Shown: one piece after another, positions 1 to 35,800 of the stretch
Layout of the letters: the number at the start of each line of letters is the position of its first letter
Position numbering within the stretch: position 1 is the stretch's first letter
Source: Psammoneis japonica
Lineage: Eukaryota
NCBI GenBank assembly: GCA_008632985.1
Contig: QPGO01000014.1
Coordinates: 186,001-250,000 of the forward strand
Direction of reading: 5' to 3'
Length of the DNA stretch: 64,000 nt
Made by a program: the position numbers and the translations under genes
The notes under the pieces: model-generated
What the model was told of the DNA's origin: nothing
Databases searched by the model: none
What the model saw: only the letters and a program-made list of their open reading frames with translations

Positions 1-1625
1 GGTGTTGTGCAGAAATTTGGTTGCACAGAGCCGTGTGCCCCAATGAATCTCTAGGAAGCAATTGACAGGCTCCACGCAGACATCAACTGGCTGGCAGAAG
101 ACTTCAAAAATGATGATGATGGCACTGAGGTTGCTTGCACAACCTCCAAAGGAACTGCCACAGTGACATCTGATGAGTCTCATTTGAGTGGCAAAGGTGC
201 ATCTGCTTGGACCACACAGGGAACCCAGGATGACCACAAAACTGAAGGCATGAATGCAGCAAGAGGCAACCCTTCCAATGTGAATGTGTGCCAAGCAGAA
301 ATTGTCAGACAACTGTGATGACATGCATCATTTGCGATTTTCATGATGTCACCCAGGGACAGGTTTCTCTTGGATGTGACAGCAACCAGGCCTTGAAGAG
401 CTCCAACAACCCTGGGTTGCAAACTCACCAAAAATCAAAAGCAGCGCAATGTGTTGTCAGCACTGCACTCCTGGATTCAAAAATCACAGGTGTGATGGAC
501 CACTGTCAACATGAAAGGGTGCATGGACAAAATGACATTGCCTGCAAGGACCCAGACCATCCCTCCAGGCTAAATGCAGACATGGACTCAAGGGCCAAAG
601 AATGAATGGCTGACATGCTGAACAATCCCACCTGCACAGCAAGTGCAGGTGGAAATGTGGTCACTTTGGATCAGAAACAGGAAAGTCATGTCCAATGCTG
701 CAGATTCAATGCAACATGCAACCAGATGGCAGGAAAATGCTGCAGTGCTGAGCAGAAAAAGGGAGATTTTCCTCACTGAGCATCAGAGACGTCAGTTGGG
801 ACTTCCAGGTAAAAGCGACATCCAATCTGACACCATCCAGACAACAATGGGCAGCAAAGCATGTGTCTGGATCATGCAGGGTCAACAAGATGCTGTGCAC
901 ATGGGGCAAATCTCTGGCGCAGTCCTGCCCACAATGCCTTTTCCCCCAGTGGATGACTCAAACCACATGCTGGAATGTCAGGTGGAGAGTGCGGTGGAGA
1001 CATTGCACAACTGCTCAGCGACACTTCAAGAGTGGTTGTGCAAAGCAGAGATCAATCTAGAAATCACCAAAATCATGCTGCAGAGACTTCAGGAATGGAA
1101 AGAGGGTGTTCCAATGCAACAAATTCACTCACAAAATGATCTCATCTGGCAGGTGGTTGACTCTCAGGATTGGACAGGATGGGGCAGATTTGTTGAAGGG
1201 GGTGCATGTCTTTGGATTGGAAGTTTGCTCAGAATGCATGCCACAAATGGGCAAACTCCAGGAGACAAGGCCAAAGGCAGGTCAGATTTCTCATTGTCAA
1301 GGCTTGCAACGCATCATGGGACCAATGGGAACACCACAACAGCACAGTCCACCCGGCCAACATGATGCCAACAGAGGCACAAGCCAAAGCCATTCAGGGT
1401 TGGGTTTGAGGTGAGTTTGCATCAGGTCCTCAACAAGAACTTCCACCAATTGACATGAGGACATTCAAAGGAACTCTGGATGAGTTTTTGAGCAGCACTC
1501 TGGAATGCCTCCAAGCCTGGCTGAACAATGTGAGTGCAGCTCACAACTCTTTCTGATGACTGCAAGCAGAGCAACAACACCAGGCACATGAGCTCATGCT
1601 AGATTGGCTGCAGAGTGCCAACAAC
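1..1625 (+). mobile_element. Decayed 3' part of a non-LTR retrotransposon ORF2 (RNase H-like domain plus C-terminal region)
   Basis: Frameshifted motifs GTATVTSDESH (cf. SDGSY), GASAW, VCQAE (cf. SYRAE), LGCDSNQAL, RLNADMDSRAK, QDWTGWGRFVEG and WDQWEHHNSTVH, typical of RNase H-carrying diatom LINEs. Confidence 0.7.
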
Positions 1626-3256
1626 AACGTTCAACATTTACAATGAAGGGTGGGGCCTTCTTGTTGTCATTGTTCACATTTCATGTGGTTGATCCAAACC
1701 AGTTGGGTGACCTCTTCTGGAAACTTGGGTGATGTAAAAGCCATTTGGCAGTGCAACAAGCAGTGATCTTTGAGTCATTTGTTTGTTTGGGTTGCCCATT
1801 TGTTCTTGGGTTTTGACACCCTGTCTTGGCTTCTCTTCCTTGAGGGTGGGGCTGTCTTTGAACACCACAAACACCTTTTTTTGTCAAAGACACCACAACT
1901 GGATCAAACATGGGATCCCCAACCAATGTGTGTGCCTTTGCGTGTCATTCCAAAATGGTTGACTCAAACTGGTTGGTGTCTCTCTTTAGAAGATGGCTGC
2001 ATTGGAGAGCCAGTGGATCATCAAGTTTGTCACCTCCTGTGCCAATCAAGAAACACACAACCATGCCCAAAACATGACTCTCTTTCCCTCAATGAGTTTG
2101 AGGAAACTTGACCCAATTGTAAAAGGGTTTGCCAGAATGACACCTGGGGTGAGCCCTCACTTAACCAACACCTTCAACATGTGCCTCTGTGGCTCCAATT
2201 GTGCACTTTGTGGTGGGACAATGCCTTCTGACAGCATGGCACAAACACTTTGTCACTGCCAGCTGCAGCTCCAGTCCCTGTGTTTTGGAGAACCATTCCT
2301 GAGTGACATGGGCCCAAGTCTCAACCTCCCCAGATGTGCCAGTGCAACATTCAACCAACACTGTCTGCATGGGCTCCAGCAAAACGAGCTGCAACTTTGT
2401 TCCATTTCCTTCACCTTTTTTTGGTTCATTTTTGTTCATTGAACAGAGGCCAAAAGCTCTTGCCTCGCAGTTGTGGCAAGCATCTTTCCTTGCAGGTTGT
2501 TTGCTGTCTGGACTGCAAATGACAAATGTTGTTTTTGGGCTTGTGAACTGGGCTCCTTTTGCTTGTGATCACATGCCTCACAGGTGGAGGAGGAAAAGAT
2601 TTTTCCAACACAACACTGGACTCATCAATTGCAGCATTGCAGCAATTGAGGTGACACTTTAGAGCAAACCAGCAAGGAAACACCATCCCAGGTGGCTTGA
2701 TGCAACAAGGGTTTGAGCAAATGAGCTCTTCTTCCTCCAGAAAAGGCATTGTCATGAGACTGTTGCAGTTGACAGAGATTTGGATGCATGGCCAGGGCTC
2801 ATCATGGCAGGAGAACATTGTTTGCATGGAGGAACAGATTGCATGCTTCCTGCAATCCACATCAGCAACTTGAACAAGTTTGTGTGGGCAGAATGTGCGT
2901 GCACTAAAGATCCAAGTGCGTCCACTCAACATCAAGGGGGCAGATGAAAACTCTTCACTCAATGTCCTTTTGGAATGCAGAAGAAACAAACAGGGCAATG
3001 ATGGATGACTGCAACCAATCAAAGGCCAAAGAATCAACTGACTCAGTTTGGCATGTCAAAAGAGACCAGAAGGCAAGCAAGAACAAAGCAACAAAAGGGT
3101 GGAACCTTGAAAAACTGATTAAGAAGCCATCTCCTGTGAAGCAAAAGGTGGTTCTTGATGCATTGCTGAACACCAAGACTGCCCAGCAGGACCAGAAGAT
3201 TGGTGGAGCAAAGAGGATTGTCAAAGCAGCATGCATTGACACTGACAAATGAAGTG

Positions 3257-3470
3257 CAAAGTGGTCACCTGCAACTGAAAAGGGTTGTCTCAAGAAAGAT
3301 CGGTGCACTGGGTCATGGCATCAGAGCCCAAATGCGGTCATGAAAGACAGCTCATCAATCAGGTGGGAGAAAGTTGACACTGAAAAATGGAACACAAAGT
3401 GATCACCTGCAACTGAAAAGGATTGTCTTGAGAAAGATTTGTGCACCAGGTCATGGTGTCAGAGCACCAA
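3257..3470 (+). repeat. About 75-bp direct duplication, 138-bp offset
   Basis: caaagtggtcacctgcaactgaaaagggttgtctcaagaaag (3257) vs caaagtgatcacctgcaactgaaaaggattgtcttgagaaag (3395). Confidence 0.85.
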
Positions 3471-5024
3471 TGGACCAATTGTTGTGAAACCAGATGACTG
3501 GGCCACCTCCTCTTGGTGCTGCTGCAAGAGAGTGTTGGCTCTGCATGAGGTTCCAGGTCATGAACAAAACAAGAACACCACCCACAATTGGTTGGATGAA
3601 AAGAAACAAGGGGACCCAACCAAGCATGCTGTTTCAGCAGAACAAGATGAAAAAGACATCAATGGGCAGATGGATTTTCTTTTGATGGTGGGTGTGGGGG
3701 AAGGACAGATGGCATCAAAGGTGGTGGCACGTGCACTGCGTGCGACAGACATGCATCACTGACAGATGTTCATTTGAACTTGCAAAATCTTTGGATGCTT
3801 CGACCAACCAGAATTTGTGCCAGAGATTTGAACAAAAGGTGAGAATGCAGGAATGTGTTGGAACATGCACAAGTGGGCCAGGCATGTCAGTGGACCATTG
3901 TTTGGCCTGGCACTTGATTTCTTGCATCACTCTCCACTTGGTGCAAGTGTCACTTTTTCACAAAAGAGTCAACATTCACACCACGCCATGCCAGTCAATT
4001 GACAGGGACCACGCCACTCCAAAGCCCACAGCAAAATGAGGTGAGAGACAACACAGTGAGATGCAAATGGATTGAACATGACTCACCCAGTTGTGTGGCT
4101 CATCATGAACAGAGCAGCAACAAGACTTGTCAGCTGCAATGCAGAATGATGCACCAGTGACAACTGTGATGCAACAAAGCAGTGGATCACTGGTCACAGG
4201 TGGGACTCTGACCACATCTGTGATGGAAGAACAAGACAAAATCATGAGCAAGGAATGAAAGAAAAGAGCAATGCAGCAACAAAATGAGTGACAGGGACAA
4301 GATTGTTTTAGAGAACTGTTGCAAGAATGCATTGCTTGGACAGCACAAGTTTCTGAATGACAAGGCCCTGAGCAACAACAATGGAAAGGTTGTAAAGACA
4401 GTGCCATCCAAGCTCAACATGTCCCAAGAAAAGACAGCTTGAATTTGGAACGTGTTGAAGGATGAGACACAAAGGCAAATGATGAGAAAAAGGAACAATG
4501 CCAGTGGGGAACTGGAGAAAGAATTTTTTCACAAGCGCTGCATCAAAGTGGAATGTGCCAGGCATGGGGAACCAAAACAGTGCTGACACACATTGCTTGG
4601 TGTGTTGTGAGTGCACAGAGTGCATGGATCACAAAAAGGGGAGCACACAAGCAGATGACAATGCCAAGATGCCATGTCCAGAGGAAATGCCAGAGGGAAA
4701 AAACAACATGATGTCCCAAAGCCATTTCACAATGCACTTCCTGCTGATTGTGGCAAGCATCAGCTCAAATCAAGATGTTGCTTGAACAAGTTGGCACCCG
4801 CAAGTGACAAGGCATTCGGCCTGCCGGTTTTGGAGAACAACTGGAACAAGCGGGTGTGCATGCTGGGGAAAACAAAGGAAGAGTTGAAGGAGGCCAGAGA
4901 CAAGTGGCTCATTCTGAACACAAAAGGGAGCAACAGGGTGGTTGGCAAAGCACAAAAAATCATGGTTGGAACATGGAAGGACTGGAGAGGTGCAAAAAAT
5001 TGGGAAAACAGATTCACAAGCACA

Positions 5025-5896
5025 GGGTCTGTGGGAAGTTGCAATTTTTGCCACCTGCATGTCAAAGCTGATGTGAGTTGTGCCTGCCAGCACAAAATCT
5101 GTTGGGTGAGTCAAACTTGTTGCTGACACCATCTCGTAGAAAAGACATTTTTAGAAACAACTTTTGACACAAAAAATGTGTGAAAAAAAGTTGCACAAAG
5201 ACCCGGATGTGCATGGTTGAAAATGTCCAAACTTTGATGTTGTGCACAAGTGTGCTGGACTTCTGTGTGTGAAAGAACCTGCGCGTGCATTTTCAACAAT
5301 GTGCAACAACTTTAAAAATGCACACCTGGGTTTTGTTTTTTCATGTGGAGTTTGTGCTGGAAGTCTCACAGGAACTGCAATGATGCTTGGATGTGCATTT
5401 TCAAAAATGTGGCACAAAAGCATGTGCACAGCCGCACATGCTTTTTCCACATGACAAGCTTGCGTGTTTTTGACACAACTTTTGACACAAATCAAAGTTG
5501 TGCCACATTTTCAGAAATGCACATCCGGGGTGTTTTTGGAATTCCTGCAAGACATCCAGTCCAAATTCTGCGTGAAACAATGAAACCCAGATGTGCATTT
5601 TGAAAGTTGTGCCACACATTTTGAAAAATGTGCATGTGGGTTCTTTGCATGTAGAAGTTCCGCACATTCCTGCACAACATGAAAATTGGGACATTTTCAA
5701 TTGTGCACATCCAGGTCTTTGCACAACTTTTTTTGTCTCACACATTTTTTTGTGTCAAAAGGTGTGTCTAAAAATGTCTTTTGTGCAAGGTGGTGTTGGC
5801 AACAAATTTGTCTCATTCACAGAATTTGTGCTGGCAGGCACAATTCAGATCAATTTTGACATGCAGTTGGCAAAAATGGTGATTTCCCGCAGACCC
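5025..5896. mobile_element. Foldback/MITE-like element with about 390-bp imperfect inverted arms and a putative 3-bp TSD (ACA)
   Basis: 5025-~5417 aligns to the reverse complement of ~5497-5896. Termini are GGGTCT...AGACCC, with ACA on both flanks (5022-5024, 5897-5899). A second copy of the terminus lies at 5983-5998. Confidence 0.8.
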
Positions 5897-8310
5897 ACAT
5901 GGAAAAAGTCTGTGTGGCTGTGCAGCTGGCATTGCAAACGGTCAAAACTCACACAGATCCTCCATTTTTTGCTTGAAAACATGATTTCCTGCAGACCCAC
6001 AGACTGAGCAAGGATGCAGATGAGTGCAACAAAGCTTGGTCAAAAAGGAGTTCTGGGAGTGCATGGACAGCAGAGAAGAAACCCAGTGGCCATGGACACA
6101 GGAAAAATGTGATGGCCATGTTCATGCAGTGGAACAAAATGGGGCAGAGTCATTGACCTTTGTTGTTGATGCAGCGCTGATGAAGCACAATTGTGTGGCC
6201 ACCCCCAACAAATGTGATGAGAGCCAAATTGCAATGAACCCAAAACCTGCATGGAAAATGAGTGACTGACCCAAATTGTTCAATTTGGCCCTGCCCAAAT
6301 TGTTCCCCCCTCAGATGTTGGGAGCACCCAAAGCACCAGGGCACACAGCTTCTGACACATTTTTTGTCAATTTGGAAGGGACAAGAAAGAATGACACCCT
6401 GGTCATCACAGCCAAGATGTTGCAGCACAAGCATGTGAGGGAGGGTGGGGCTGCTGCTTGCTTTCTGCAGCTGACCCTGCAAAAGTTGCAGCCATCAACA
6501 AGGAAAAGAAACCAACCCCTGACAGACATGCTTTCAAGAAACACCTGTGGCAGAATCTTTCAAAAGTTCTGCCAGACCTTTTGCTGAAGTCACCAAAGTG
6601 GAGCAAGCACTTGGCGAGGCACTGCAAATTGCAGCAGTGATGCCCAGTTTGACAAGGCAGCAAAGTGCACCACCAAGTCCATTTTGGCTCAGCATCTGAT
6701 GCTCGACAAGCAACAGCTGGGATGAAAAGTCAAATGAGTTCTTCCTCTTGAAACAATCAGAGGTGGCGCACCTGCATGTTTGCCCTTTTCTTTTGGGCAA
6801 CATCACATCTGCATCTGCAGCTGCCTTCTCAATCACTGTTTTTGCTCAAAAACAAATCTTCTTCATGACCCTCTGTTTTGCACCATGGCAACAAAAAAGA
6901 TGCTCTTGGGATCAACGAGAGGCTGACACAACAAGTGAATCTTGCATTGAAAATGGCTGGCAGAACCTTGTTGGCGCTGAGCTTGTCAACTTGCTCAAGC
7001 TTCTTCTCCTGTTGAGTGTGCTCCTCATTGTAGACTGTTGGAATGACTTTCTTGTTGAAGTGAGTGGCCGTTTGATGTTTTTCTGCATTTTTTGGTGTGC
7101 AAATCATGGGCCCATGTGAAAATGTGCAGGACAAAGATTTTTGCAAAGCGATGGCTTTTTGAGCCACACCACATCAGCTGTGCTTCAAAACATCTTTTTC
7201 TTGAAAGTTTGTTTCAAGCTGCCACTCTAACTTGCATTTGACCATTCTTGTTTGCTCAATCCATCTGAAGTCCCTCATTTGTCCTAGAAGCTCTGTTGTC
7301 AGACACACAGCTTGGCAAGTTGCTGTTGTGCAACCTTGAGCATTCACTGCATCATTGCGTGACATGAAGCAACAATCTTTTTCTGTCCATCCATTGTGCA
7401 TCTGTCCAATCTCCCATCCAAATTTTGTGCTTTGGCTCTCTGTGGACATTGGATTGCACAATGCTGCACCCCCCTTTTTGCCTTGAATTTGACCCAAACA
7501 GCTTGTGATTTTCATTCAGCCCAAAACTTGTTTTGCTGCACTTGAAGCACAACAACCATGGTGAATTTTAGATGACACAGGTGAGGGCAATGGCTGGAGA
7601 TGGGGCGGCCTCGTGCTCTCTTCACATTGTCATTTCTGATGCATGTGGCTGTCACATCATGAAGAGAGCAGGAGGCCACCCGCTGTTTGAGAACAATCAT
7701 TGCATGATGTGCATCAGGCTGTTGTGCATGCTCATGTGCTGCATTTCATTCTGTCTTCTGCATGCATGTCTCTGCAGATTTTCCTGCGAAACGTCAAAAT
7801 GCGCATCGCGTTGTTTTGGGAAAAAAATTTGCACTCATGACCTCCATGGTGCAAATGGCATCATGGCCTGACAAACAGAGCACCAACGGTGATGATGGGC
7901 ACCATTGCAAGTCTGCAGCTGTTTGTCTGGTCTTGCAGGATCCTTCATTTGGGAAATGCGGTGTTGAGTTTGTAAAGAAAGGAGTTGATTTGTGTGCTTT
8001 GGATCAGACAAAAAGCAACGGTGTGGAAATAAATTGATTGTCACCATTGTCAACAAGCGCCACCTCACACATCACTCATGCTGAATCTGTTCTTTGCTTG
8101 CACAGGAAAACGCCATGAGCTCCTGTCATGCTGCCAACACAACAGGGGAAACGCGTGTCTTGCCCAAGCATGGCAAAGCGGATCAGAGATGAAAATGGGA
8201 AACAAGCAACGGAGCGTTCCAAGAAGTGCAAGGCTGAACGGTCCTCCCACCAGCATGGCAAAAGTCAATGGCAGCCTTGATCTTGCCCCTCTGGTGCAAG
8301 CAAGCGTGCA

Positions 8311-10100
8311 ATGTTGGATGACAACTCTGCCAGCAACAAATCACAAGTCAAACACACTCGTTGCAAGGAGGGTGGTGGGAAACTCAAGTCCACCAACCTT
8401 GAAGACTCACCATTCAATGGGGAAAACCCCACCTCTCTCAGCTTCTTGAAAAGTGACTTGAGGCAGGTGTGGGTCTCATTGCATCTATCTTTGCACCTGG
8501 TGTCAAAAAGGCAGTCGTCTCCCAAGTTTGCACAGCATCCACTGTGCAGCGAAAGTGGAGAATCAATGTTCAATGCGAACTTGACCATTGCTTCATCGTG
8601 CAAAGAAGTCATCGCGGCAGTCAAACAGTTGTCACTTGTTGTTGTTGATCAAGAATTGACAACTCACAAAACCAAGAACCCACGCATGTGCAGTGAGACA
8701 GAGCCACAAAATGAGCAGCCAACCACAGAAAACTTCCCAACAAATTCGAAGCTTGCTCCGACAATGACAGACAAGCATTGGATCAAGGCAATTCAGGAAG
8801 CATCTTACAAGGAAATCGGAGGCTTGAGTGACTCAGAGGATTCCAGTGCATCCCTGCAAGTAGAAAAGGTGACATTGGACCTTGTTTGTGTCACCAAACC
8901 CACAAAAAAAACAAAAAAGAAGAAGCACATTGAAGAAAAACGAAATCAAGGTGCACCTCCATTTGCTGCCACCGGCCAAAAAAGAGGGTGACGTTTGCAA
9001 GGTGCTGGACAAGAAGGATGCAAGATGTGTTGGAGTGCTCATGCCAGATGTTGACGGCATGGTGGGGTGGACGCACTCATTGCACGCAATAACTGAATCA
9101 GCTTTGAATGATGAACGACATGAAGGCTGCGTCGGGAAATGTTCGTCGCTTTTGCTGGCTGCCGACTGTAACTCTCCAAGAGTCGTCAGCTCTGCACCAA
9201 GATTTGAAAGCATTCAAGAATGCCCAACAAGCCAACAGAAGCAATTGGAGAAACGAGTTCATGCACTCGTGTTAGCTTGGGGAAGAAAAAGGAGAGGGAC
9301 AACGCATGTGAGTCAGACAAGGAGCCACAAGTTGTGCTGTTGCAGGATTCTAATGATGCATTGTCTCCTGCAAAGCGTGCGCAGAAGAGATCTAAGAAAG
9401 ATGAGATGAACTTTGCCAGAGATGAGCTTCCTTCCTTGGTTGATCAAGTTTGTCAAGACATTGCTTTTCACAGACCTTCCATTCAACGAATTGTGCAGGG
9501 CTCTCTCTTACGAGCATTGTGAAGTGTTGAGAAAGTTTTGGGTGGTAAAAATGAAGAACTGTGACAATGATGAACATGGGCACGTGTTTGATCACTGTGC
9601 CTTGAATGAAGACGATCCGGACATGTGGCCCAAACTGGATGAGTTGCCACCAAGTGTCCACCTGCACCAAATCAAGGATGCTGAAAAATGCAGGGGCATT
9701 CCAGCACGTGGTAAATTTGATGTTGGCTCTAACAACATGCCAAGACGACATGCAAACAGCACGGAGACTGACCCACTGGCCAAGAGCATTTTAGAGATGG
9801 CCAGTGCTGTGAGCGGCAGAGGTGCCACCCCATCCACGTCCACCCCTGCTTCTTCAGTTGGTGCTGCTCTCACAGCTGCTCCACAACAGATGATGATGAC
9901 TGTGTTGTTCTCTCAAAGTCCAGGCAGTGAGAAAGAGGATTCTGTGTCAATCCCAATGGCACAAGAGAACACAAGGACTGTGTTCAGTTTGTTTCAAGAG
10001 TTGAACCAATCGAGCTCTCTTTTTCAGCTGGAGATGACAGATGACCGAGAAGCTTTCTGCCCAGCAAGTTGAAATGGGATGTGGGGAAAATCAGATCAGC
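8311..10100 (+). pseudogene. Second, unidentified ORF relic inside the Tc1-like element, convergent with the transposase
   Basis: Overlapping frameshifted ORFs 8311-8991, 8882-9409 and 9413-10072 with protein-like composition; no recognised motif. Confidence 0.45.
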
Positions 10101-10879
10101 CTTGGACTGGGACTTGGCGCGAACTTCTACATCTCATTCAATGCTGAGCCAGGTCCAACAGACAAACATTTTACATCCATGGAAGACGTGTGGGCATTCT
10201 TCAAGGTTCCAGCTGGGGATGGATGGGGTGCATGTGAACAAGGGGAATGGAAGGGCGTTGCCCTTTCTCATTTGGTGCAGTGTCTTCCTGGCTGTTGCAA
10301 CCTGTGTGCTTTGGGCAAGCGTGTTGCTTGTGACATTTCTTGCTCAGCAAATTGGCCGATCAACCAGTCTTGCAATGTTGAGAGTTGAGATGCTCCATGG
10401 CCAACCTCACAAATTGTCAAGCAAGTCAAGCTGAGTCATGAATGGCATGGTGTCTGCCTTCAAGAATGAGCACAACAGCAGTGAAACCCGCCAATCAAAT
10501 GGGTGTGCAGTGATGGAGGTTTCCTCAGACTTGTGCCAGTGCAAATTGCCCCGTCACATGCATGCAGAAACATGTGCATGTTGTTTGAAATGGACAGTCA
10601 CACAAGTTGGCATGGTGAACATTGATGCAAAGAGCAGCACAAGAAATGCAGCACAATCGAGACCAGATTGCATTTGTTCAGAAATGCAGAAGGGTGAAAA
10701 AGAAAAACACCACATGCGGCATGTCAAATGAAACAATTTAGAATTTTGAAATGCACCCACAAATCTCAATGCACTAGAAATGAGTTTCTGTTTTACAGCG
10801 CAAGTGCTGCAGCGGCCATCATGAAGGTGGCCACCAACCGCCTTTTCCCCTCATCCCCAAGCTTTTCACAACCGGGCGG

Positions 10880-11900
10880 CTTCGCCTTTCGAAACAGATT
10901 TCAAGCTCCAAAAGAGCATGAATGTGGGCAGTGCACCAATCCACGCCTTTTTCGTAGGTAAAGTGCTTGAGTCCTGCCTTGCACACACTGAAAAAGTGTT
11001 CAATGGGGTCAAGGTCGGGACTGTGGGCTGCTGCAAAGAACAGTTTTGCACCAGCACCCTCAATCAAATCTTTCACGTGCAGAGAAAGGTGAGTTGATGC
11101 ATTGTTCATGAAGACAACAGATCTTGGCTCACCCCATGCATGCTGACCAAGAACAGGGACCAACTTCTCCTCCACATGCTTCTCAAACCGCTCCATGTCA
11201 ACAGTTCCTCGATTTGGGTCATTGTCCTCAGTGCTGTGCTCCCACTCCACAATCTTGCATGCTTCCCACACAAACCCATTGACATCTGCTGCTGCCATCA
11301 ATGTGTGCTGCTTGCAGACGTCCTCTTCAAAGAATGCATCAATGACAGGCGGTTCACCCTTCTTCCCCCAGCCACGCTGACGTCAAGAGGCATCACTTGA
11401 TTGGTGAGTCTTGTCAAGAAAGAGTGCTTGCTCTGGATGGCTCGCGTGTCATCTTTTGCACGCATCTTGAAAGCATTGCCGCTCATGCTCACATCTTTGT
11501 CATGCTCAAACTGCCAGTTTCTGGAGAGTGCATCCAAGGCTGTAAATTCTTTGCCAAATTGTGCTTGCATGCCAAACTTTGCCAAGTTTGGGTCTCATGC
11601 TGAGCTGGATTTCATCGAGATGCAGCCGTGGCTTTTCCTCCAGCAAATCAATCAAGACTTTGTCATCACTGCATGAAAAGGCAGTTCTTTTGCCAACTCC
11701 TTGCGATCCAGTTCTCCTCTTGACCGACCGCATTCTCCTGCGAGTTTCCGACTGGGTCTCTCCAAATTTAAGACAGCGAAGAAACCAACCACATGAAACG
11801 TCCTGTGCGGAACATCCGCATCGCAAGTTTCCCAAGTGGAGCACAGCTTTCCAACTTGTCGTCCATCACCATTGGCGTGTGGGCATGCATCATTGCCTAA
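10880..11900 (-). pseudogene. DD34E transposase pseudogene (HTH plus DDE_3)
   Basis: PRLHLDEIQ...STIWQRIYSLGCTLQKL (HTH), FLDETH, and VFMNNASTH-x-HSPDLDPIEHFFSVCK with exactly 34 residues between the second catalytic position (now N) and E; stops and frameshifts present. Confidence 0.9.
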
Positions 11901-12785
11901 AAGGTCCATTGCCTCATTGATGAGATTCTTTTGCTTCTTCACATCATCGTGACAAACACCTCCAAATCGCCGAGAGCCGCTGATGTTCTTGCTCTTGTTG
12001 AAAAATTCATCATCGACCCAGAGTCCCCGACGATGCAATTCCACCTCCACAAATTCGACATCTGGGTGGACCAACATGACAGATGACTTTCTGCACAAGC
12101 AAAGAACAGATTCAATGCAAACAACATGTGAGCCGGCGCTTGTTGACAACGGTGACGTCCAAATTGTTGACGTGCCGTTGCTTTTTGTCCAATCCAAAGC
12201 ACACAAATCCACACTTTTCTTTATGAATGTGGCACCGTATTTCCCAAACGAAGGATCCTACAAGACCGGACGATAGTTACGAACAAACGATGGTGACTGT
12301 CGCTGGCGACTACGTCGTAGATGGCGAGTTGCTGCGTCACTTGGTGCGATTCGGTGCACGACAAAAAATTTTTTTTTCTAAAACAACGCGACGCGCATTT
12401 TGACGTTTCGCAGGAAAATCTGTAAAATGCATGTTCAGATAATCAACCGAAACGCAAAAAAAGAAGACGCAAATGCCGGTGCGCCGTTTAGAGCAATGCG
12501 ATTGTTGATGCGATTGATGTTTTCGAATGGAGAGGTGAGACGCCAAGTCTCGTTTTAGCTAAAAAGTAAATACAATGCGAAAAAGAGGTAAAAAATCAGG
12601 TCGAAAACAAGGGCGTTTCCACCGAAAAGACTGCAACAGAAATGCGCCCTGTCCCTTGCGTCAGGATTCAGGATGATTTTCATCAAGCATCCAATTGCAG
12701 TTTGAAGTTCTCATTTCACATAAAAAATTTCAATCTGAATCGAGAAGCCTAATTCGATGATTGTTTGAAGGAAGAAGACATTGTC

Positions 12786-15414: not shown

Positions 15415-15779
15415 ACGACACGACGCTCTGCTGGCAAGGTGTCATCGAGTGGCATCACAGTTCACACATTTTGCATTTACAGGCACCAGTGTGAAAGTGG
15501 CATTCTTGTGCTGATCCTGTTGGTGACACTGATGCGGGTTAGAACGGTGCATTCTTTGGGGTGTCGGGAAATGGCACGAGCAAATCCATTGCCACAGCTA
15601 GACTGGCTGAGACAGTGCCAAATTTGTTGCCGCTTTTTCATCCAATGCAACACCCACCGCAGCTGACAGCTGGCATCAATGACATCTCCCCTCTTTGAGC
15701 CAAAAATCATTGTCTGGCACAAAATCTTTTTCGAAAAATGCCCTGTCATGTCCAAAGGCACGAAGCGGGCATCAATGGC

Positions 15780-16620: not shown

Positions 16621-17200
16621 CTCCCATGACCATGAGCACATCTGCCTGGCAACAGGAGAGCCCATCAGCTGGAAGTGCCAACAACCTTGGCTGTTTGCCT
16701 TGTGTCATAGAAGGGGCTGCCACTTCATTGCATTTTGGGGCCACGCTGCCAGAAGGCCTCACACTCCGCCTCTGGCCAATCATGGCACTCAGTCTTTTTG
16801 TTGGCAAACAGGTTTTGTCTGGCACTGGAATGCAGTGCATGGCATGCAGGGCTGTTGTCCTCTTTCAGCTGCTGACATGGAAACCACCACTTTGTTGACT
16901 GTGCCCATGGACTTCCAAGTGTTTGAAGCTGCCTCTCCCAAGCACACAAGCAGTGGTCATTGACATTGTCTACAGCTTGAGCTCACCACAAAAAAAAAAC
17001 AGACCACAAAAAAGCAGCTCTGCTCCTTCAGTGCACTTTCAACATGACAAAGTGCTGCGGAGGTTGTGGACATGGTCAAGTGCACAAAATGCAAGAAGTT
17101 CACTGCCTGTCTCTGTTGTTGGTTGATGCTCTGTGCTTGACAACCTCAGAGGTCAGCACCTCAACAAGTCACAGCCCAAAAAGCAAGCACCTTTGCAACC

Positions 17201-17487: not shown

Positions 17488-17549
17488 GAGCAGGCATGCA
17501 ACAAAGACAAGAGCGCTTGTTCTCTTTCAAGGTGAAAAGATTTTGAAAG

Positions 17550-21599: not shown

Positions 21600-22310
21600 T
21601 GCAGGCTGGCCATCTTTGCCCAGGACAGTCCATTGGTGGACCACTTCGAATGACACGGTGAACACTCCCAGCATCTTTGTTGATCACACCTGTGGTTTCA
21701 TGTGTCAAGCTTCAAGTTGGTTTCTCCACTGTTGCAGTGGTGTGAGCAAAGCATGCATTTGAACAGATGACAAGTGGTCAGCTTGTTGTCAGCCAGGAGC
21801 ACCTTGCCACCAACATGGCTTTCTCAAGACCAAAACCAATTTGCTCTGCACATTGGGAACACTCAACAGTGTGTTTGCCACTGTGGTGCCAGTGCCCACT
21901 GTCAGAGTGGCATCTCTGAGCACTCCATCCACCAGGTCATTTCCAACATGGCAAAAGAAGCTGCAATCCTTTGCACATCTGTTCATTGGTGCAGAGCAGC
22001 ATTGGCAGCTCATTGCAGCCTGTGTCTGTCAACTGCACCACCTGTGCCATCATGCGCCATTTGCTGCAACACTCTAGTGTCAAATGGGCTTTGTCCTGCC
22101 AATGTCCACACCAGAGGCCCACCATCCCAAGCACGCCATTGTTTGCACAATCTCAGCTGAAGTGGCACCAGACAAGCCCAAGAAGCAACATGGGTCTGCC
22201 AAGGACTGGAGTTGTAAGGGACAAGCCAGGTGTCCACTTTGGCTGGTCTGCCACACTTTTGCACCAGCACCATGGCTGTTGGGGCAAGGTGCAGCAAGAT
22301 GCAAGCAGAG
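21600..22310 (+). mobile_element. Decayed Ty1/Copia-type integrase
   Basis: Frameshifted LCPGQ..VDHFE, SIFVDHTCG, AKHAFEQM and HCGASAHCQSGISEHSI (cf. YCG..AHHQNG.AERSI). Confidence 0.75.
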
Positions 22311-22334
22311 CAAACTCTGGCTGCACCTGTGTCT

Positions 22335-23165
22335 TTTGGTGAGGTGGGTTCAGTTGCCTCCAACATGGTCAAACACATGTGCAAACACATGTCTTTGACA
22401 ATTTGGTTGGTCCCTCACCTTGCTGTTTCATGGTGTGGCATTTGTGATTGGCGCCAATGAGCCTGGCAATGATGGTTGTGGTTGTGTCCCAGAGTCTTTC
22501 AGCAGAGCACATCAAGCTGGGCACAGCTTGGCCAAACCACTTCAGGGAAGAATGTTGATGATCATTTTGGACAGTCTGCTCCCCTCTTTTTTATTGTGAG
22601 TGTTTCTGCCATTGGCACAGAGTCAAGCAATGCTGGTGGAGATGTCGTTCCAGCTGCATGAGAACATTTTGACACTGAACAAGCCATCCAGCTGGGTCCA
22701 GTCAGGGCAAACTCTGGCCACAGGGAATGCAGTTGATGATTTTGGTGCACCCATCATCTCTTGTCAGCTGACAGCATCACATTGGTGGTCTCTTTGGCAT
22801 TCAAGAATGACAATGATGGGGATCACTCTCTGGCCACGTCCAAGTTTTCCAATGGCATGGGCCCAAAAGACAGACTCTTTGTGTTGGGCAACATGCACCA
22901 CACATTGATTTTGAGTGGTCCATTTTCTTGTCTTGTCTTTCAATGGAAATGCACTCCTGGGTGTGGGTGCACCAGACAAGAGCAACAACAGCAGACTTGA
23001 CACCAGCAACATGCATGTGTTTCAATTCTTTGATGGAGCATGAGCTTGCCACTTCTGACAAAAAAAACGATCATGATTTTGGTGGTTTGACAGCTCTTGG
23101 CACTGACAGAAAACTGTTGCAGCTGTGGATGCAGATTGGCAGAGAGATCCACCTGACTGCACACT
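22335..23165 (+). pseudogene. Heavily decayed duplicate of the 3' half of the FG-GAP-like gene (14500-15350)
   Basis: Colinear matches such as ctccaacatggtcaaac, cagcttggccaaacc, gggcaaactct, cagcatcacattgg and ggccacgtcc. Confidence 0.85.
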
Positions 23166-24649
23166 GAACACAAAACCCAAATTCAATTGTTAAGGTGGTG
23201 CTGCACTTCCGCCCTGCAACTCCAGCAATCAAGCCAACCCGCACCCCCAGTGCACTTAAAGTGCGGCAGGGGCATGTGGCAATCAGTGTCAGGTGATGCC
23301 GTGCCAAAGCAACTGGCAACAGTGCAAATGCCTTGTAAACCCAATTGTTTCACCTCATGGATGCTGGATTTAAACATGGGCCTGACAATTGCCAGCCAAT
23401 TTTGAAGCCTGTGAGTGGAATGAGTGAGACAACTCAGCCAAATCAAAAAGTTCTGCTTGATCCTTGGCCAAACAACCGGCAGACCCGGAGCACACAGCCT
23501 TGACCTCTGCCTCCATGTCACAAAACATTGTGCAGCAGAACAAGTTCAACAGCTTCTTCTTTTGCTGTTGGCAAAGAAAAAGCAACACAGATTTGAGGCA
23601 GCTGGCAAGCACGAGTGGTGTGAAATGTTTTGGTGCCAAAAAGGAGTCATTGAGCAATGCTGGTGTGTGTGCTGCACTTGCAGCAAGAGCAAAAATGGCA
23701 GTCTTTTGCTGACCCTCTTTGCAATGCTGCTGCAGCAGGTTGGAGCTGCACCATCTTTTGGTGTCAGGAAATGGCACAAGCAAATCTGTTGCCACAGCCA
23801 AACCAGCTGTGACTGCCACAACACCTGGCGTCAATGACACCTCTCTTCTCCAAGCACCAGCAACCATTTTCTGGCACAACGCTCATTGCAGGCTCTCATC
23901 CCAGTTCCTTCTTTACCCCAGAGAGTGCCTCCTGGTGCTGCTTGCTGTACAAAGCATCATTGGCTGACCCCGCTGTTGTCAACAACATGTCCCAGGTTGG
24001 CAGCAGCCTGTGGCTCTGGATCATGCCACAGCAAAAGCTGCATCAGTGGCGGACTCATCTTCTTTGGTGCACGTAGAAGCCTCATGACTGCACAGACACT
24101 TGCACATGACCAGACACATGGAAACAGATGACAGCTCCCTCCACATGTGGCAGCAAGGCTCTGTTTGGCAGCTGAGCCCACCAGCTGGAGGCATTGATGA
24201 CACCTTGTTTGCCCCTGTCAGAGAAGGGGGACTCCATCATCATCCTGGGGCCATGCCAGCCCTCATGCTCAGCAGGACCCTCAGAAAGGTGGTTTTGGCT
24301 CTTTTCCAGGGAGGAATTTGGTGGGCTGCCACAAAGAGAAGAAGTGTCCTCAACTGGCATCAAGAGAGCCACCTCTTGTTGATGCTCTGCTCCTTGTTCT
24401 TTCTCTCACACAGCTTTGTGTCAGCAACTTCTTCTGTGGCATTCTTTGGCATGCTCAAAGTGTGCTGAAGGAGCAGATCTGGCCTGGGCTCCTTTTGTGG
24501 TGAGCTCAAAGCTGGCAACATCAATGATGATGGCTGGCACTTGTGTGTGTTTGGGCAGAGAATGACTGCTCTGCAAACTCAGAAATCTGGGTGCACAGTC
24601 AGGTGGGTTTCAAGGACAGCAGCTCAAAGCCAGCAACCAAGGTGTGCAG

Positions 24650-25441
24650 CATGTGTTTCATTTCCAGCACCAGACAGAACCCACTTGTCAACACCAACTG
24701 AAAGCACCTTGGACCCAGCAAACTGATGAGCATGCAGCACCTCAACAAAAAATGGCTGAAAAAGCAAGCACCTTTTCAATGGACCCTGGAAGATGCCAGA
24801 GCCAATTTGCTCTTTCCATGTGCAGTGTGTTTTTTCTTGACACTTGCATCTGCTCTCACGGAAGAGAGGAGGTGCAGCGCCAGCTGCTGTGCGCACATTG
24901 CCCACGCTCTGTGCTGGCTGTGTTGTTGTTGTGTTTTGTCTCTCATGGCAGTGTCCATGTGATGCTGTCACATGCCCTGTGACTGCCACATGAGTTCAGA
25001 ACAGGTTTGCAAAAAATGAAGGTGCTTGTTTCCTTTTTCTTTTTTTTTGCATGTGTTTCATTTCCAGCACCAGACAGAACCCACTTGTCAACACCAACTG
25101 AAAGCACCTTGGACCCAGCAAACTGATGAGCACGCAGCACCTCAACAAAAAATGGCTGAAAAAGCAAGCACCTTTTCAATGGACCCTGGAAGATGCCAGA
25201 GCCAATTTGCTCTTTCCATGTGCAGTGTGTCTTTTCTTGACACTTGCATCTGCTCTCACGGAAGAGAGGAGGTGCAGCGCCAGCTGCTGTGCGCACATTC
25301 TTGCCCACGCTCTGTGCTGGCTGTGTTGTTGTTGTGTTTTGTCTCTCATGGCAGTGTCCATGTGATGCTGTCACATGCCCTGTGACTGCCACATGAGTTC
25401 AGAACAGGTTTGCAAAAAATGAAGGTGCTTGTTTCCTTTTT
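24650..25441 (+). repeat. Near-identical 400-bp tandem duplication
   Basis: 24651-~25040 and 25051-~25441 differ at only a few positions. Confidence 0.95.
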
Positions 25442-25557
25442 CAGATGCCACCCCCCCCCTCATTGGGTGCCACCAGCAAACAAATGGAGAGAGATGGGCC
25501 CTGCGCTGCACCGGTAGATGCGGATGGAGTAGAGTAGAACACACACAGGCTAACAGA

Positions 25558-25582: not shown

Positions 25583-25771
25583 CGAGTGCCGTCTTTTGGG
25601 CACAGCAGCCTAAACTGAATTTGTCTTACCGGAAACAATGCCAAAAGCTGCCGGAAATACCAGTCGAAATGAATGTTCGCAAGGTGGTTGTCATAGAAGA
25701 AGAAGAAGGAGAAGGAGAAGACAAAGCTCCCATGCTTCCATGGTTGAAACGCAAGAAGTAGTTAGAAAAAA

Positions 25772-27367
25772 ATGGTGAAGACGAGGAGACAAAACAAGCG
25801 CTCATTCGACCGTATGAAAGGGGAGAAGGAGAATCATCGAAGTCTCCCTGCGAAAGAGTCTAAGTTATCCAAAAGAAAAGTCGGCTCTCATGAGAAAGCG
25901 ATAGAACCTAGACAGAAGAAGGCGAGGCATCAGAAAGCGAAAAAGGAAACGACAGCAACAAGTCCTGATTTGTGGCTTGTCACTGGTGTTGACAGAAACA
26001 AAGGCTTGTCGGAAATTGCAAAACTTCTTCCAACTGGACTCAAGAAATGCAACAAACAAGTCGCTCATTTTTTTCTCTTTTTGTATGAACGGCAACAAGT
26101 TTGGGAGCGCCGCAATGGCGGAGAAGAAGAATACACCAAGTGCGTAGCGATGCAGCAATACTTCTTTTGCAACGTAAGTAGCAGAAAAACGAAATCGTAT
26201 GTATCTGTCTCTTCTTCGTGTATTATTGATAATCTCGTATGCTCTCTCTGTGTGACTTGCAGAACTACAGAGAACTTGATCGGGGAACTTGTTATTTCAG
26301 AGCACACGTGTTGAATCTGTTGGAGAAAGGACCGGGCAGTCACCAGAATTGGTTTGAAGTCATCTTATGGGCTTCAGTATGCTATCGGCTTGTCAACAGG
26401 ATCAGCACCTTTGAAGATTTCGGGTGCATTCCTGGCATTGCCGATTGGCCGCGCTTACTAAAGTTCCTTCAGAAGAATCATCATGTCAAGAAGCTGTTTA
26501 CGGATGCACACATGACAAGTGGGTACGGGCCTTATGTCAAGAGCATGTCGGCTCTCTACGAGAAGGACGGAGCAAAGATAAAGCAAGTCGGTCTACAGGT
26601 GCTCCAATGCTGCATGAACCGAGACTTGAAGGGTTGCTTTCAGGCCGTCAAGACAATCGATGGTGCCGGACCATTTCTTGCTTGGCAGGTGACTTGCGAT
26701 TTGATGGAGTCGCAATGCCTCAAGCCTTGCACCGAAAATGACTGGACTGAACTAGGCCCAGGAGCAAAAGGTCAGTTCTAAAAAAGACACGAGGATACTG
26801 TTTGAGATGCCCTTGTGATTCACTTTCTATGATTCTTGTTTTTGCTTACCGGCAGGTGGTATTGACCATATTTTTCGGGAAGGCAAGCAGAAAAATGCTT
26901 ATCTGGATCTTGCAGTGATTTTGCGAGAGCGTCAGGACGCTGTCTTTGAAGCCCTTGGTCTCAAGTTTCCTCGATGGAACGGGGTGCCGTTGACCTTGAA
27001 GAACATCGAGCACCCGCTGTGTGAATTCAAGAAGTACGTGACTATCCAGAGTAAGCTCGCAACGAACCAAAAAGTTCTTGGACAACGACGGAAAAAGTCT
27101 CGAAAGTCAATGGATCTCGGCAAGCCATGCCACAATGCCAGAACGTGCGGTGTAGATGACTCGGAAGAAATCCGATTGTGTAATAAATGTCTAGTGGGCT
27201 TTTGTGGAGGATGTGGCCCAAGGGATTCGACTTCGGCGTGTTGGGTTTGTCATCGTTGCACTGCGTTTGAAGCACTGGCTTTCGACATTGATGATGTTCC
27301 AAAAGAAAGAAGGAGCAGGCGTCGGTCCGCATCATCTGGTCAGGCAGCCCGAAAAATTAAGACCTGA
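25772..27367 (+). CDS. 5-hmdU DNA kinase (aGPT-Pplase1 / HMUDK helical domain) family protein with C-terminal ADD/PHD-like zinc finger, about 473 aa, 3 exons
   Basis: Exons 25772-26173, 26263-26770 and 26856-27367 join in frame via GT-AG introns. Motifs FFLFLYERQQVW, FFCNNYRELDR, YRLVNRISTF, GPFLAWQVTCDL, DWTELGPGAKGG and LTLKNIEHPLCEFKKY. C-terminal C-x5-C...LCNKCLVGFCGGC...WVCHRC; basic N-terminus. Confidence 0.85.
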
Positions 27368-27445
27368 AAGGGACTACTGTATGGACCAACCTTATAGGAC
27401 AAATGATGTAAGTAAGACAATCAATTTAGTGCTCGGGCTCTCGAG

Positions 27446-32818: not shown

Positions 32819-32879
32819 GTTTCAGCTTGGAACCCTAATCGGCCAACTTACGAATTTTCTTTTCTTGAATGTGACTGGC

Positions 32880-35800
32880 GCCAAATCGATCTTCTTGTCA
32901 GGGTGCAGCACAGCTGTCTGATGAATGCTGTGTGTTGTCTTGGACCCACTCGATGGCATTGAATCTCATCCTTTCCCATCGGAATGTGAGTCTCGATTCA
33001 GCATCGTTGTGGAGACAAACCAGCACCATCCTCCCAGCGGAGATGTCTGGAGCTGATCTTAAAAGAGGGAGCTTGTCAGCATCTGAGGCACGGAGGAGTT
33101 GCTCCAATGATTGCAACACTGAATCACATGTTGACAGAGCCACACACTTTGGAGCATGGCTTTTGCCACTTGTTTGCTTGCCAATTGGACCACAGTGTGA
33201 CACCACAACAGGCAAGAAACAATGGCATTGCCCAAGACAAGGCTTGAGATGCTTGCATTTCTTTCCTTTTTGTGGTCCAGCGGGAGGTCTTGGAAGTGTG
33301 GAACAGCGCATCTGTGTCGGCTGCTCTGGCATCCATGATCACGTCTGTGCTCCATTCCCAAGAGCCTCTGGCTGAAAGACCTCCATGATTGCAATGTCTG
33401 GACTTGTTGCTGACAGTGACTGGGCTTTCAGGCTGAAGGCACAACCGCTGGTGGCTGGGCTTCTGGAGGTGCAACCAGCGGGGTTCACAAATGGTTTGCA
33501 CAGTGTGCTTTGGAAGGCTTGAGTGCCAAAGTGCATGGGTGGCCAAGCTTGTCATGGATCTCCTCATCATGTTGAGGAGAGACAGTTGATTTGCCTTTCT
33601 TGTGCTGAAGGGTGTGTCATGTGGAGAGCTTGCAGTTGCATCCATTGCAAGCCTTTGGCAAGTCAGGGGGTTCTTTGCTGCAGCACAGGAAGAGGGCATC
33701 TCAAAATTTGCAACATGAAAGTTCGGTGCCATTCAGTGCGCAAATGGATGCACTGACACAGCCAAGCAACAGTTTTGGTGCTGGGCATTGCTGCATGAGC
33801 TTCAACATTGGGTGGTGACTGAACAAAGAACAGACTTGAGTGCATCTTCATTTTTTTGCTTTCCTTTTGGCTGCTGCTGTCCTCACATCACGTGTCATGT
33901 CCTTGTGCATGGCTGTGGTGAATTGAGAGTGGCCACGAAGTGAGTCAATCAGCTGCATGTGAGCACATGAGAGCACTTGCTTCAAAGCTCTGTTTTGCAA
34001 ACTCTGTTGGACATTGGACAGACAATCCTGCAAATCTGATTGGCAGGGCGGCAAAGGCCAGTCTCGGGTTGTTGTTTTTGTCCGACACAGTCTCTCCCAG
34101 AAGTGCCAGTGGGAATTGATGCTTGATTGCATCTTCTGTGTTGGTGCAAAGGAATCACCACCACTGTTTTTTGCTGCACATTGAACACATTGCCACTTGT
34201 GTTGCAAAGACTTCTGCAGACCAGCACAGGCCATCTGTGAATGGCAAATTGCTGTCTTGGAGAGTCTGTGAATGACCCCTTCACTGGTCTCAACATTGAA
34301 GCCAAGGCATTCAAAGTGTTTCCTGGTGTTCTCCAGATTGTTCTCTGGGACTGATGGATTGTTCTTGGAGTTGTTGGTGAGGCAGCAGCTGTGTTTGGGT
34401 CCTTTGGCTCATGGAGTCAGGAAGAAGTGTCACAGAAGGTGAACTTTCCCTGCTGCAGCAGAGTTGTTGGTGTGCCGAAGAGTGGGTGCATCTGGAAAAT
34501 GCTTGTTCATCTCCCGGATCAGTGGGAGAAGGCCTGGCTCATGTGCTCCAATGCCCAGTGGATCACTCTGTGCAATGCCTTGTGTCCTTGCTGTGAAGGG
34601 AAGCAAATGTTGAGAGGTTCCCCATGGATGATCAAGATGCTCCAGTGCTTGTGGCAGTTGCTTGAAGGTGAGCTGAATGCCAGAAGGTCATTTGTGCCCA
34701 ACTGTGAACAGCACCAGCATCTTGTTTTTTTGTTGAAGCTGTTGGAGGCATCAACAAAAAGGAATCTGCGGTCATCATCAAATTTGTGTTGCCCCCAGAG
34801 TGGGTTCATTGCATGAACCCTGCCTTCAATGCCTGCCTCCAATCCAGCACATGATTGCTGGTCAGCAGCACAAGCCTCCTCAGCTTCTGCATAGAAACCA
34901 GGAGAATGGCTTTGGTCATGTGGCTCATTGCCACGCCCCCCGCCCCCACACCAACCAAACGAATGCCCCAATTTTTGTCCAACATGATGAGTCTCTTAGC
35001 CATGAGAGCCCTGCAGGCTGCCCCAGGGGGCAACTCATTTGATGGCTGGTTGGTGAATGTGCACGGTGCTTCTCAAAGCAATCCACAATCCACTGGCCTT
35101 TCTATGATGGAGAAGCCATTCCAACACACCACGCATGCATCAAATCCACCAAGTCCTGTGCTCCCTGACAATCTTTGCATGACAGCATTGACAACACTGT
35201 TGGTGATGATGACATCCAGTTCACTGCATTTGGTGAATTGGTCTTCTTCCAGAATCCTCAACTCTGGATGTTTTGCTTTGTGGGGACTTCCTGAACTGTG
35301 TCCTTCATCCTCTTGTTGACATCATCCAGTGATGGCATTTCACCTTTTCTCCTCTCAGTGATGTGCCTGACTGTGCACCTCTCATGTTTTCTTGCAGCAC
35401 CATTTTGTTGAATGCCTTGGCACACTGCTTGGGTGTCTCATTCCTCTGAATGGACTTGAGATGGCTTGCAAGCAGCCACTTGGCAGATTCAACCAGCATT
35501 TTGTGTTTGTCCATGTTCCAATCATCCACATGCCTGGCGAGCAAGGTTCTGATGTCCTTTGCTCTTTTTGTGTTGCAGCCCCACTGTAAAATGACAATTT
35601 GAAATGCCACAAACCTCCACAAGTTCCATTTCCACATCTTGATTCTGTGAAGTGACTCTGCCAATGTTGCAACAAATTGTTTCCCTGGGGAACTGTTTGG
35701 AAAGTCATGCCATTGTGTTGGGTGGGGTGTTGGCCGGTGCCAATGCTCTTGCCAAGAAGTTGAGTTGTCCAATGTTCCACCATCCAGATGAGCGCCATCA

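Follow-up and report, generated by a model that had tools for sequence, protein, structure and literature searches.

Tyrosine loss in transposon relics of a diatom-like alga as a probable by-product of regional TpA and CpG conversion

Decay through deamination of methylated CpG is established in the transposons of vertebrates and plants. A different kind of regional mutation has been described for the chlorarachniophyte Bigelowiella natans (Rhizaria). According to the preprint of Mettrop et al. (bioRxiv 10.64898/2026.01.13.699255), 231 of the 302 nuclear point mutations of B. natans mutation-accumulation lines lie in an integrated nucleocytoplasmic large DNA virus (NCLDV) and an integrated virophage, and 230 of these 231 viral-region mutations are A>G or T>C, all at TpA and at ~1000x background. 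The same source counts 124 genomic clusters of TpA-poor, CpA+TpG-rich windows, finds the TpA-poor coding sequences enriched for DDE endonuclease and reverse transcriptase, and proposes an ADAT2-like adenine deaminase; its main text makes no mention of CpG, hydroxymethyl bases or tyrosine. In diatoms, transposons are reported to be CpG-methylated via DNMT5a (PMC9998398). In this study, we have analysed 64,000 nucleotides deposited under Psammoneis japonica (assembly GCA_008632985.1, contig QPGO01000014.1, positions 186,001 to 250,000; hereafter the window, meaning this whole stretch), in whose first 36 kb a first-pass annotation had noticed histidine or cysteine in place of conserved tyrosines in several unrelated elements. 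Within sharply bounded blocks of the window, nearly all TpA has been turned into CpA or TpG, on either strand, and most CpG into TpG or CpA. The replacement of tyrosine is probably a by-product of this regional mutation, acting at the DNA level in the silenced, transposon-rich chromatin of a diatom-like alga, since the conversions change TAY codons (Tyr) into CAY (His) or TGY (Cys) and CGN codons (Arg) into Cys, His, Gln, Trp or stop, and make TAA and TAG stops vanish. The window looks like a second lineage with TpA hypermutation, in which transposons have been driven to saturation beside CpG decay.

Five blocks (29,173 nt) were delimited by listing the position of every TA and CG in the window (Table 1). 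Over the window as a whole, the observed/expected ratio (o/e) of TpA is 0.33, with TpG at 1.48 and CpA at 1.44. The blocks contain 100 TA (o/e 0.05) and 440 CG (0.25), with TG at 1.82 and CA at 1.80, versus TA 0.55, CG 0.97, TG 1.18 and CA 1.14 in the 34,367 nt outside them, and the shift between the two is at most ~0.2 for every other dinucleotide. At background ratios, 1066 TA and 1682 CG would be expected in the blocks; the joint deficit of 2208 is set against an excess of 2367 TG+CA. The first-pass annotation had regarded the loss of CpG as secondary, a view that the counts overturn, as the drop of CG (from 1682 to 440) exceeds that of TA (from 1066 to 100). The low CG ratio, together with the surplus of TG and CA, is the pattern expected of methyl-CpG decay. 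The GC content of the blocks (0.42-0.56) is close to that of the remainder of the window. When 1-kb segments were scored for TpA hypermutation with the thresholds of the B. natans preprint (rho TA<=0.43 together with rho CA+TG>=1.52, the rho formula being as interpreted here), 27 of the 64 passed, two of them singly and the others in runs of 12, 10 and 3, each run having at least three consecutive segments.

The ratios of TA and CG both change abruptly at ~12,221/12,751, 25,500, 32,860, 36,100, 62,030 and 63,450, and TA content is ordinary across the host genes expressed from 25.7-32.8 kb and 36.1-62 kb. Relics of a Tc1-like and of a Gypsy-like element lie within the blocks and the adjoining host genes are spared, as expected of a process aimed at foreign or mobile DNA, with three blocks left unclassified and one host-type pseudogene affected. 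Logan contigs of a public sequencing run (X1), the one DNA run found to contain the stretch, span the segment 8-28 kb at ~65x, with four single-copy differences from the window in 20 kb; this match argues that the signature is no local assembly error, although X1 is possibly the window's own source. In six-frame translation, tyrosine makes up 0.09% of the residues in the blocks versus 2.11% outside, His, Cys, Gln and Trp are 1.5-1.7 times higher, and Arg falls to 0.52 times its level outside.

Table 1. Features of the window (positions in the 64,000-nt stretch).
Feature	Position	Strand	Description
Block A	1..7760		saturated, TA/CG-free, unclassified; TA o/e 0.04, CG 0.13, TG 1.90, CA 1.82
Tc1-like DNA transposon relic	7761..12433	-	inverted arms 7761-8108 and 12088-12433; transposase relic 10790-12065(-)
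Ordinary-TA/CG island	12222..12750		within silent region; 18 TA in ~530 nt
FG-GAP repeat pseudogene	12751..16000	+	interrupted at 13991-14450; FG-GAP_2 E=1.1e-27 and 9.5e-5
High-copy element	13991..14450		~450 nt, inserted in FG-GAP pseudogene; TA o/e 0.23, CG 0.69, mild depletion
Block C	16001..25500		saturated; TA o/e 0.05, CG 0.15; abrupt end ~25,500
Ty3/Gypsy-like integrase relic	17884..19361	+	mapped by tblastn of relatives; inside block C
Decayed FG-GAP paralogue	22337..24072	+	inside block C
Tandem duplication	24649..25442		inside block C, at its extreme edge
HMUDK_hel host gene	25761..27416	+	three exons, E=6.5e-4, 3.2e-13 and 4.1e-9; profile positions 4-274 of 281
Block D	32860..36100		saturated, unclassified, abrupt edges; TA o/e 0.03, CG 0.19
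Block E	62030..63450		saturated, unclassified, beyond the range of the first-pass annotation; TA o/e 0.05, CG 0.20

The consequence for proteins is clearest in two relics that have recognisable relatives. The transposase relic of the Tc1-like element is interrupted by stops and frameshifts; its match to DDE_3 (Pfam, E=5.6e-13) and the flanking inverted repeats place it with the Tc1/mariner type. Two intact relatives, P0004 (445 aa) and P0005 (458 aa), were aligned to it across the stops and frameshifts by tblastn, with identities of 60% and 50%. The relic retains 149 of the 198 positions at which P0004 and P0005 are identical. None of seven tyrosines is among them (four are now His, two Cys and one Phe), and only 14 of 27 arginines (the losses including four to Gln, two to Trp, two to His, one to Cys and one to a stop) and 4 of 11 isoleucines remain; all other residues are 60-100% retained. 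DNA of these intact relatives was absent from two metagenome scans.

The second relic was found through the open reading frame (ORF) at 18428-18937, which has 153 relatives at E<=1e-3. Domain scans of 10 of the 150 relatives listed gave Integrase_H2C2 in eight, RT_RNaseH in six and RVT_1 in four, a content that identifies them as Ty3/Gypsy-type polyproteins; the integrase lies C-terminal to reverse transcriptase (RT) and RNase H in these relatives, and in the window no part of the polyprotein other than the integrase can be recognised. When the 150 relatives, polyproteins included, were compared with the window by tblastn, matches occurred only at 17.9-19.4 kb, with no relic of RT or RNase H elsewhere, and no long terminal repeats (LTRs) were found for the element. 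The integrase relic retains 141 of 235 consensus columns: His (9/9) and Trp (6/6) are intact, Arg is kept in 7 of 21 columns, and Tyr in none of four (three His, one Cys). For the two relics pooled, tyrosines conserved in relatives are retained in 0 of 11 cases (seven His, three Cys, one Phe), versus 264 of 354 for residues other than Tyr, Arg and Ile (Fisher p=4.8e-7). Arginine is retained in 21 of 48 (p=3e-5), and 21 of its 27 losses lead to Gln, His, Trp, Cys or a stop.

These comparisons bear out most of the first-pass annotation, which had read ten motifs as altered from the presumed ancestral residues of family consensus motifs: six of the ten, all in the Tc1-like and Gypsy-like elements, agree with the claim, and the FG-GAP motif does not. 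Both intact transposases have PYSPDLNPIE where the window has AHSPDLDPIE (HSPDLDPIE, 10999-11025, minus strand) and LYLDEI where it has LHLDEI (LHLDE, 11611-11625, minus strand). The reading of GCT as a former GYT finds support in one relative (LGYTLQ); the other has LGHTLQ. In the Gypsy-like element, tyrosine stands at the site of WHLNK (18710-18724, plus strand; read as a former RYLNK) in 107 of 135 relatives, at that of HAWN (18797-18808, plus strand; YAWN) in 105 of 119, and at that of GPH (19141-19149, plus strand; GPY), one of the three histidines counted above, in 34 of 37. Relatives therefore mostly carry tyrosine at these sites, and its loss is greater than that of other residues. The exchanges foreseen by the annotation (Y>H/C, R>Q/W/C/H and stop>Q/W) likewise fit the tallies in the two relics and the six-frame rise of His, Cys, Gln and Trp. 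In the case of FG-GAP, GCVRVF (13971-13988, plus strand) had been derived from GYVRVF. Among 120 relatives, the pattern G-x-V-R-V-[FY] occurs 764 times, with His after the G 613 times and Tyr 32 times, so that histidine is the family norm and the proposed ancestor fails.

The remaining motifs concern a LINE-type RNase H, a Copia-type and a CRE-type element. A Pfam scan (E<=0.01) of 631 stop-to-stop ORFs of at least 45 aa (366 of at least 75 aa, and 265 block ORFs of 45-74 aa) gave no RT, RNase H, Copia-type or CRE-type domain, a weak negative, as Pfam also overlooked the integrase core that the database-wide search for relatives recovered; the motifs HCG and KHL, which recur by chance, were not searched for. 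Among ORFs of at least 75 aa in 1-36 kb, only DDE_3, FG-GAP_2 and HMUDK_hel were found, and in blocks A and D no stop-to-stop ORF of at least 45 aa contained a Pfam domain. The ORF with SDESH (169-183, plus strand; read as a former SDGSY) falls at rank 8 (score 0.86), behind unnamed clusters, on an Atlas cluster with RNase_H on 21% of its members, which is a lead only. Searches with motif expressions for YxDD, TDGS and LPQG gave a few isolated matches, none convincing.

The direction of change can be followed where related copies exist. Single-step replacements were typed against the window's flanking bases with the favourable ancestral codon chosen, so that the share of transitions is an upper bound; 59 of 104 are TpA-type (27) or CpG-type (32) transitions. 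On the coding strand, the two TpA changes occur in similar numbers (TpA>CpA 15, TpA>TpG 12), and so do the two CpG changes (CpG>TpG 14, CpG>CpA 18). In the Tc1-like element, seven of the nine right-arm TA stand opposite TG or CA of the left arm, and 14 of 26 aligned CG do likewise; the arms, today 70.6-70.8% alike, were presumably alike at insertion. Between the FG-GAP copies, 44 CG at 14497-15174 correspond to 34 TG or CA and to three CG at 22337-23031. Over four duplicate pairs, CA opposite TG accounts for 64 of 120 double-transition dinucleotide differences and every other class for 6-13, an excess predicted if ancestral TA and CG resolved independently into either product. Since both strands are affected, and a DNA transposon with its arms, a pseudogene and unclassified DNA alike, the process acts on DNA and not on retro-copied RNA. 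The claim of the annotation that TpA goes to CpA or TpG on both strands, irrespective of element class, is upheld by the block ratios and by the balance of replacements.

The two dinucleotides did not disappear together. Throughout the blocks TA o/e is 0.03-0.11, and CG o/e is 0.13-0.20 in blocks A, C, D and E versus 0.46 in the Tc1-like element (0.08 for TA over 7761-12221) and 0.64-0.67 in the FG-GAP pseudogene (0.06-0.11 for TA), which has lost nearly all TpA and retains most CpG. The last two have thus lost more than 85% of the expected TpA and only about a third to half of the CpG, which indicates that TpA was lost before CpG. A step in CG at ~7.8-8.0 kb falls where the Tc1-like element begins on the left, which gives the impression of a younger element embedded in older decayed DNA. 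The block edge at 12,221 lies ~130 nt within the right arm and not at the element's end, pointing to targeting by chromatin state over element sequence.

The TA that survive in the blocks, read on both strands, are followed by A in 86 cases, G in 61, C in 43 and T in 10, versus A 546, G 588, C 753 and T 695 outside (p=8e-18, a rough value, the two flanks of one TA not being independent). TpA followed by a pyrimidine has therefore been removed most completely. The trinucleotides counted as precursors of new TA (TGA, TGT, TGC, CAT and CAC) are about equally frequent, and we accordingly read the bias as quicker removal of TAT and TAC, which are the tyrosine codons.

As for mechanism, the CpG half would be ordinary deamination of 5-methylcytosine (5mC) on methylated transposons, which the DNMT5a-mediated methylation in diatoms would account for. 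The TpA half might come from an enzyme that is directed at silent or foreign chromatin and converts bases there, as in the process seen in B. natans, and the simplest chemistry for it would be deamination of adenine to inosine on either strand. We give adenine deamination slightly less than an even chance, thymine oxidation a little more than half of that, and the remainder to other chemistries; flanking bases fit the first two alike, because the neighbour is identical when read from either strand.

The alternative that survives best, though we consider it unlikely, is a TET/JBP-type 5-methylpyrimidine oxidase acting in silent chromatin on the T of TpA and on the 5mC of CpG. The resulting 5-hydroxymethyluracil (5hmU) or 5-formyluracil, possibly modified further, would mispair and yield T>C, and 5-formyluracil does mispair with G. 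Such a geometry, in which a pyrimidine precedes its palindromic purine, would cover CpG too, and T>C on one strand is A>G on the other, so that the sequence evidence fits equally. What kept this reading alive is a gene ~260 nt past block C with a complete HMUDK_hel domain (Table 1). Contigs of public run X2 lack 26174-26262 and 26769-26853, both bounded by GT..AG, which shows that it is spliced and expressed, and its nearest Atlas clusters (0.96) are phage 5-hydroxymethyldeoxyuridine (5-hmdU) DNA kinase and amino acid:DNA transferase. Phage enzymes of these two kinds are reported to work on 5-hmdU in DNA (PMC8989533), and dinoflagellate 5hmU to mark transposons with a preference for the T of TA and TC (PMC11572971). 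The expected TpC>CpC signature is absent, however, CC and GG having o/e 0.90-0.91 in the blocks, as outside; the adjacency of a single gene to block C may be chance, and the B. natans authors prefer an ADAT2-like deaminase. A wider proposal, that a TpA-specific hypermutation defence operates also in diatoms, possibly throughout the Stramenopiles, Alveolates and Rhizaria (SAR), and erases transposons faster than CpG decay by oxidising or hypermodifying the 5-methylpyrimidines of pyrimidine-purine palindromes (the T of TpA and the 5mC of CpG) instead of deaminating adenine, with the HMUDK_hel-like gene in the pathway, seems to us rather far-fetched. A nuclear homologue of phage thymidine-hypermodification enzymes would be unusual in its own right; the predicted product is basic at its N-terminus and rich in Cys at its C-terminus.

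It is very improbable that no TpA-specific process was at work and that the blocks are CpG-decayed repeats from TpA-poor ancestors, or the outcome of selection against TpA. TpA is depleted window-wide, even outside the blocks, and CpG decay by itself yields an excess of TG and CA, as this reading would have it. Against it, the intact Tc1 relatives contain 4.3-4.6% Tyr and have Y where the relic has H or C, the FG-GAP pseudogene has been stripped of TA with its CG largely in place, seven of nine TA of one Tc1 arm are TG or CA in the other, and at 12228-12231, where the window has TGTG, the transcript of a related copy (run X2 contig) has TACG. Selection on coding sequence is implausible in relics that contain stops and frameshifts.

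RNA editing of the ADAR type (A>I on double-stranded transcripts) followed by copying into DNA through retrotransposition is barely credible. ADARs prefer a U 5' of the edited A, as the Discussion of the B. natans preprint states (bioRxiv 10.64898/2026.01.13.699255), and one of the hypermutated elements is an LTR retrotransposon. However, the Tc1-like DNA transposon, its inverted arms, the FG-GAP pseudogene and unclassified DNA are affected equally, both orientations occur on one coding strand (15 versus 12), where strand-specific editing would give one, and the block edges are independent of element ends, as at the 12,221 boundary. ADARs also prefer a 3' G, and the surviving TA is rarest as TAT, not as TAG as this preference would predict. 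The footprints of APOBEC3 (G>A) and ADAR (A>G) in animal retroelements resemble the window as fossil deaminase-type hypermutation in mobile elements; they differ in arising on the cDNA or RNA of retroelements in a strand-specific manner.

Fungal-type repeat-induced point mutation (RIP), triggered by duplication, is hardly tenable: duplicated pieces do occur within the blocks, and many diatoms have DNMT4, kin of the fungal RID enzyme with no known function according to PMC9998398, but RIP turns CpA into TpA, raising TpA and AT, where the blocks have TpA destroyed (CA 1.80) at a GC content of 0.42-0.56, it requires duplication, where the blocks stand at single-copy depth (~65x) today and the only truly high-copy element of the region shows the weakest depletion (TA o/e 0.23), and even the hypermutated NCLDV insert of B. 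natans is described as single-copy (bioRxiv 10.64898/2026.01.13.699255). The likeness to RIP is that transposons are inactivated regionally, by transitions only and at specific dinucleotides, and that the affected DNA has sharp edges and extends into an adjacent pseudogene.

Regional DNA-level mutation, our preferred reading, is closest to the B. natans system, with which the window shares TpA>TpG/CpA changes on both strands and a regional, clustered 1-kb footprint, here superimposed on CpG transitions and background changes. It is unlike that system in lineage, the window's host gene grouping with diatoms, and in degree: the NCLDV and virophage targets are reported as still TA-rich (3.3% and 9.2% TpA), whereas the relics of the window are saturated (o/e 0.05). 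In addition, CpG is lost alongside TpA, on which the main text of the preprint is silent, and the new mutations that were measured in B. natans correspond in the window to a footprint in the sequence. Methyl-CpG decay accounts for CpG>TpG/CpA in silent repeats, for the CG o/e of 0.13-0.20 in the oldest blocks and for Arg>Cys/His/Gln/Trp/stop; it is unable to remove TpA, and methylation at this locus is suggested by the diatom literature. Dinoflagellate 5hmU (PMC11572971) offers a parallel in another SAR lineage as a TpA-preferring thymine modification on silenced transposons; it is described there as an epigenetic mark, not a mutagen, and prefers TpC too, and our case is known from its sequence.

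The lineage of the host was approached through a UBX-domain ORF at 41704-42774(-) with 287 relatives at E<=1e-5, the best 54% identical. Among the 120 relatives listed, the named ones are diatoms (Seminavis, Nitzschia, Epithemia) and none is Bigelowiella or a self-match; of six matches in MMETSP/EukProt that were traced, five come from Asterionellopsis glacialis, Grammatophora, two Entomoneis and one entry labelled as the ciliate Tiarina. The best named eukaryotic relative of the FG-GAP pseudogene is likewise a diatom. On these few genes, we assign the window to a diatom or a nearby ochrophyte; a dinoflagellate and B. natans itself, both considered as sources, are rejected in view of the relatives of the UBX-domain ORF. 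In our literature search, whose coverage left most subscription journals outside, no report of the TpA/CpG signature in diatoms was found.

Several points weigh against the reading we prefer. No new mutation was seen: of the four single-copy differences between X1 and the window, only that at 9090 is TpA>CpA, and X1 may be the window's source. The ancestral states depend on relatives of no more than 46-66% identity and on duplicate pairs in which each copy has mutated. The loss of TpA and that of CpG are loosely coupled, so that two processes are required. In the FG-GAP pseudogene, whose tyrosine content is 0.31% versus 3.15% in 120 relatives and which has in-frame stops downstream of GCVRVF, the six columns with Tyr as consensus (60 of the 120 relatives aligned) read Phe in five and Cys in one, not His or Cys throughout. 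For blocks A, D and E, where recognisable genes are absent, we infer the label of transposon relic, and the assignment to diatoms rests on one host gene and the FG-GAP matches.

TpA-specific hypermutation is known from the 2026 B. natans preprint, and the present case is best filed as an extension of it, the new parts being the lineage, the transposon targets, the saturation and the accompanying CpG decay. If a diatom shares this hypermutation, it is probably an old or recurrent genome defence of eukaryotes, not the oddity of one species. Some diatoms are genetically tractable and would allow a search for the enzyme, and a candidate must match the preference for TpA followed by a pyrimidine. 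The two speeds at which TpA and CpG are lost provide a relative clock for dating silenced insertions. In addition, the loss of tyrosine codons and of TAA and TAG stops produces long ORFs that are spurious and lets transposon relics escape profile searches.

A few further observations concern the features of Table 1. In the Tc1-like element, ~45 nt near the outer ends of both arms (7765-7810 and 12385-12430), in or beside hypermutated DNA, retain all but one CpG; a conversion tract of recent date or a binding site under protection might explain this. The segment 12044-12280 has a ~94% match in a contig of run X2, from which 85 nt bounded by GC..AG on the minus strand are missing, and a related copy elsewhere appears to be transcribed and spliced. 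The element inserted in the FG-GAP pseudogene reaches a summed contig depth of ~141,000 versus ~65 around it, recurs as contigs of 48-77 nt in a tiny run (X3), and is preceded by a telomere-like CCCTRA stub at ~13985-14006; no Rfam family reached its gathering score, and the element is without a match there. Block A contains an 892-nt palindrome (5025-5896) with arms 75-77% alike and 13 CA/TG double differences. The unit of the tandem duplication in block C is ~400 nt, its copies are 98.7% identical, and CG versus TG is among their few differences. In ordinary DNA, the copies of a tandem repeat at 44398-45136 (period ~310 nt, 76-87% identity) have TG or CA opposite 8 of 29 aligned TA. Finally, a protein kinase gene at 36580-38610(-) has a long low-complexity tail; its region has a GC content of 0.56 and an AT skew of -0.33, the strongest skew in the window.

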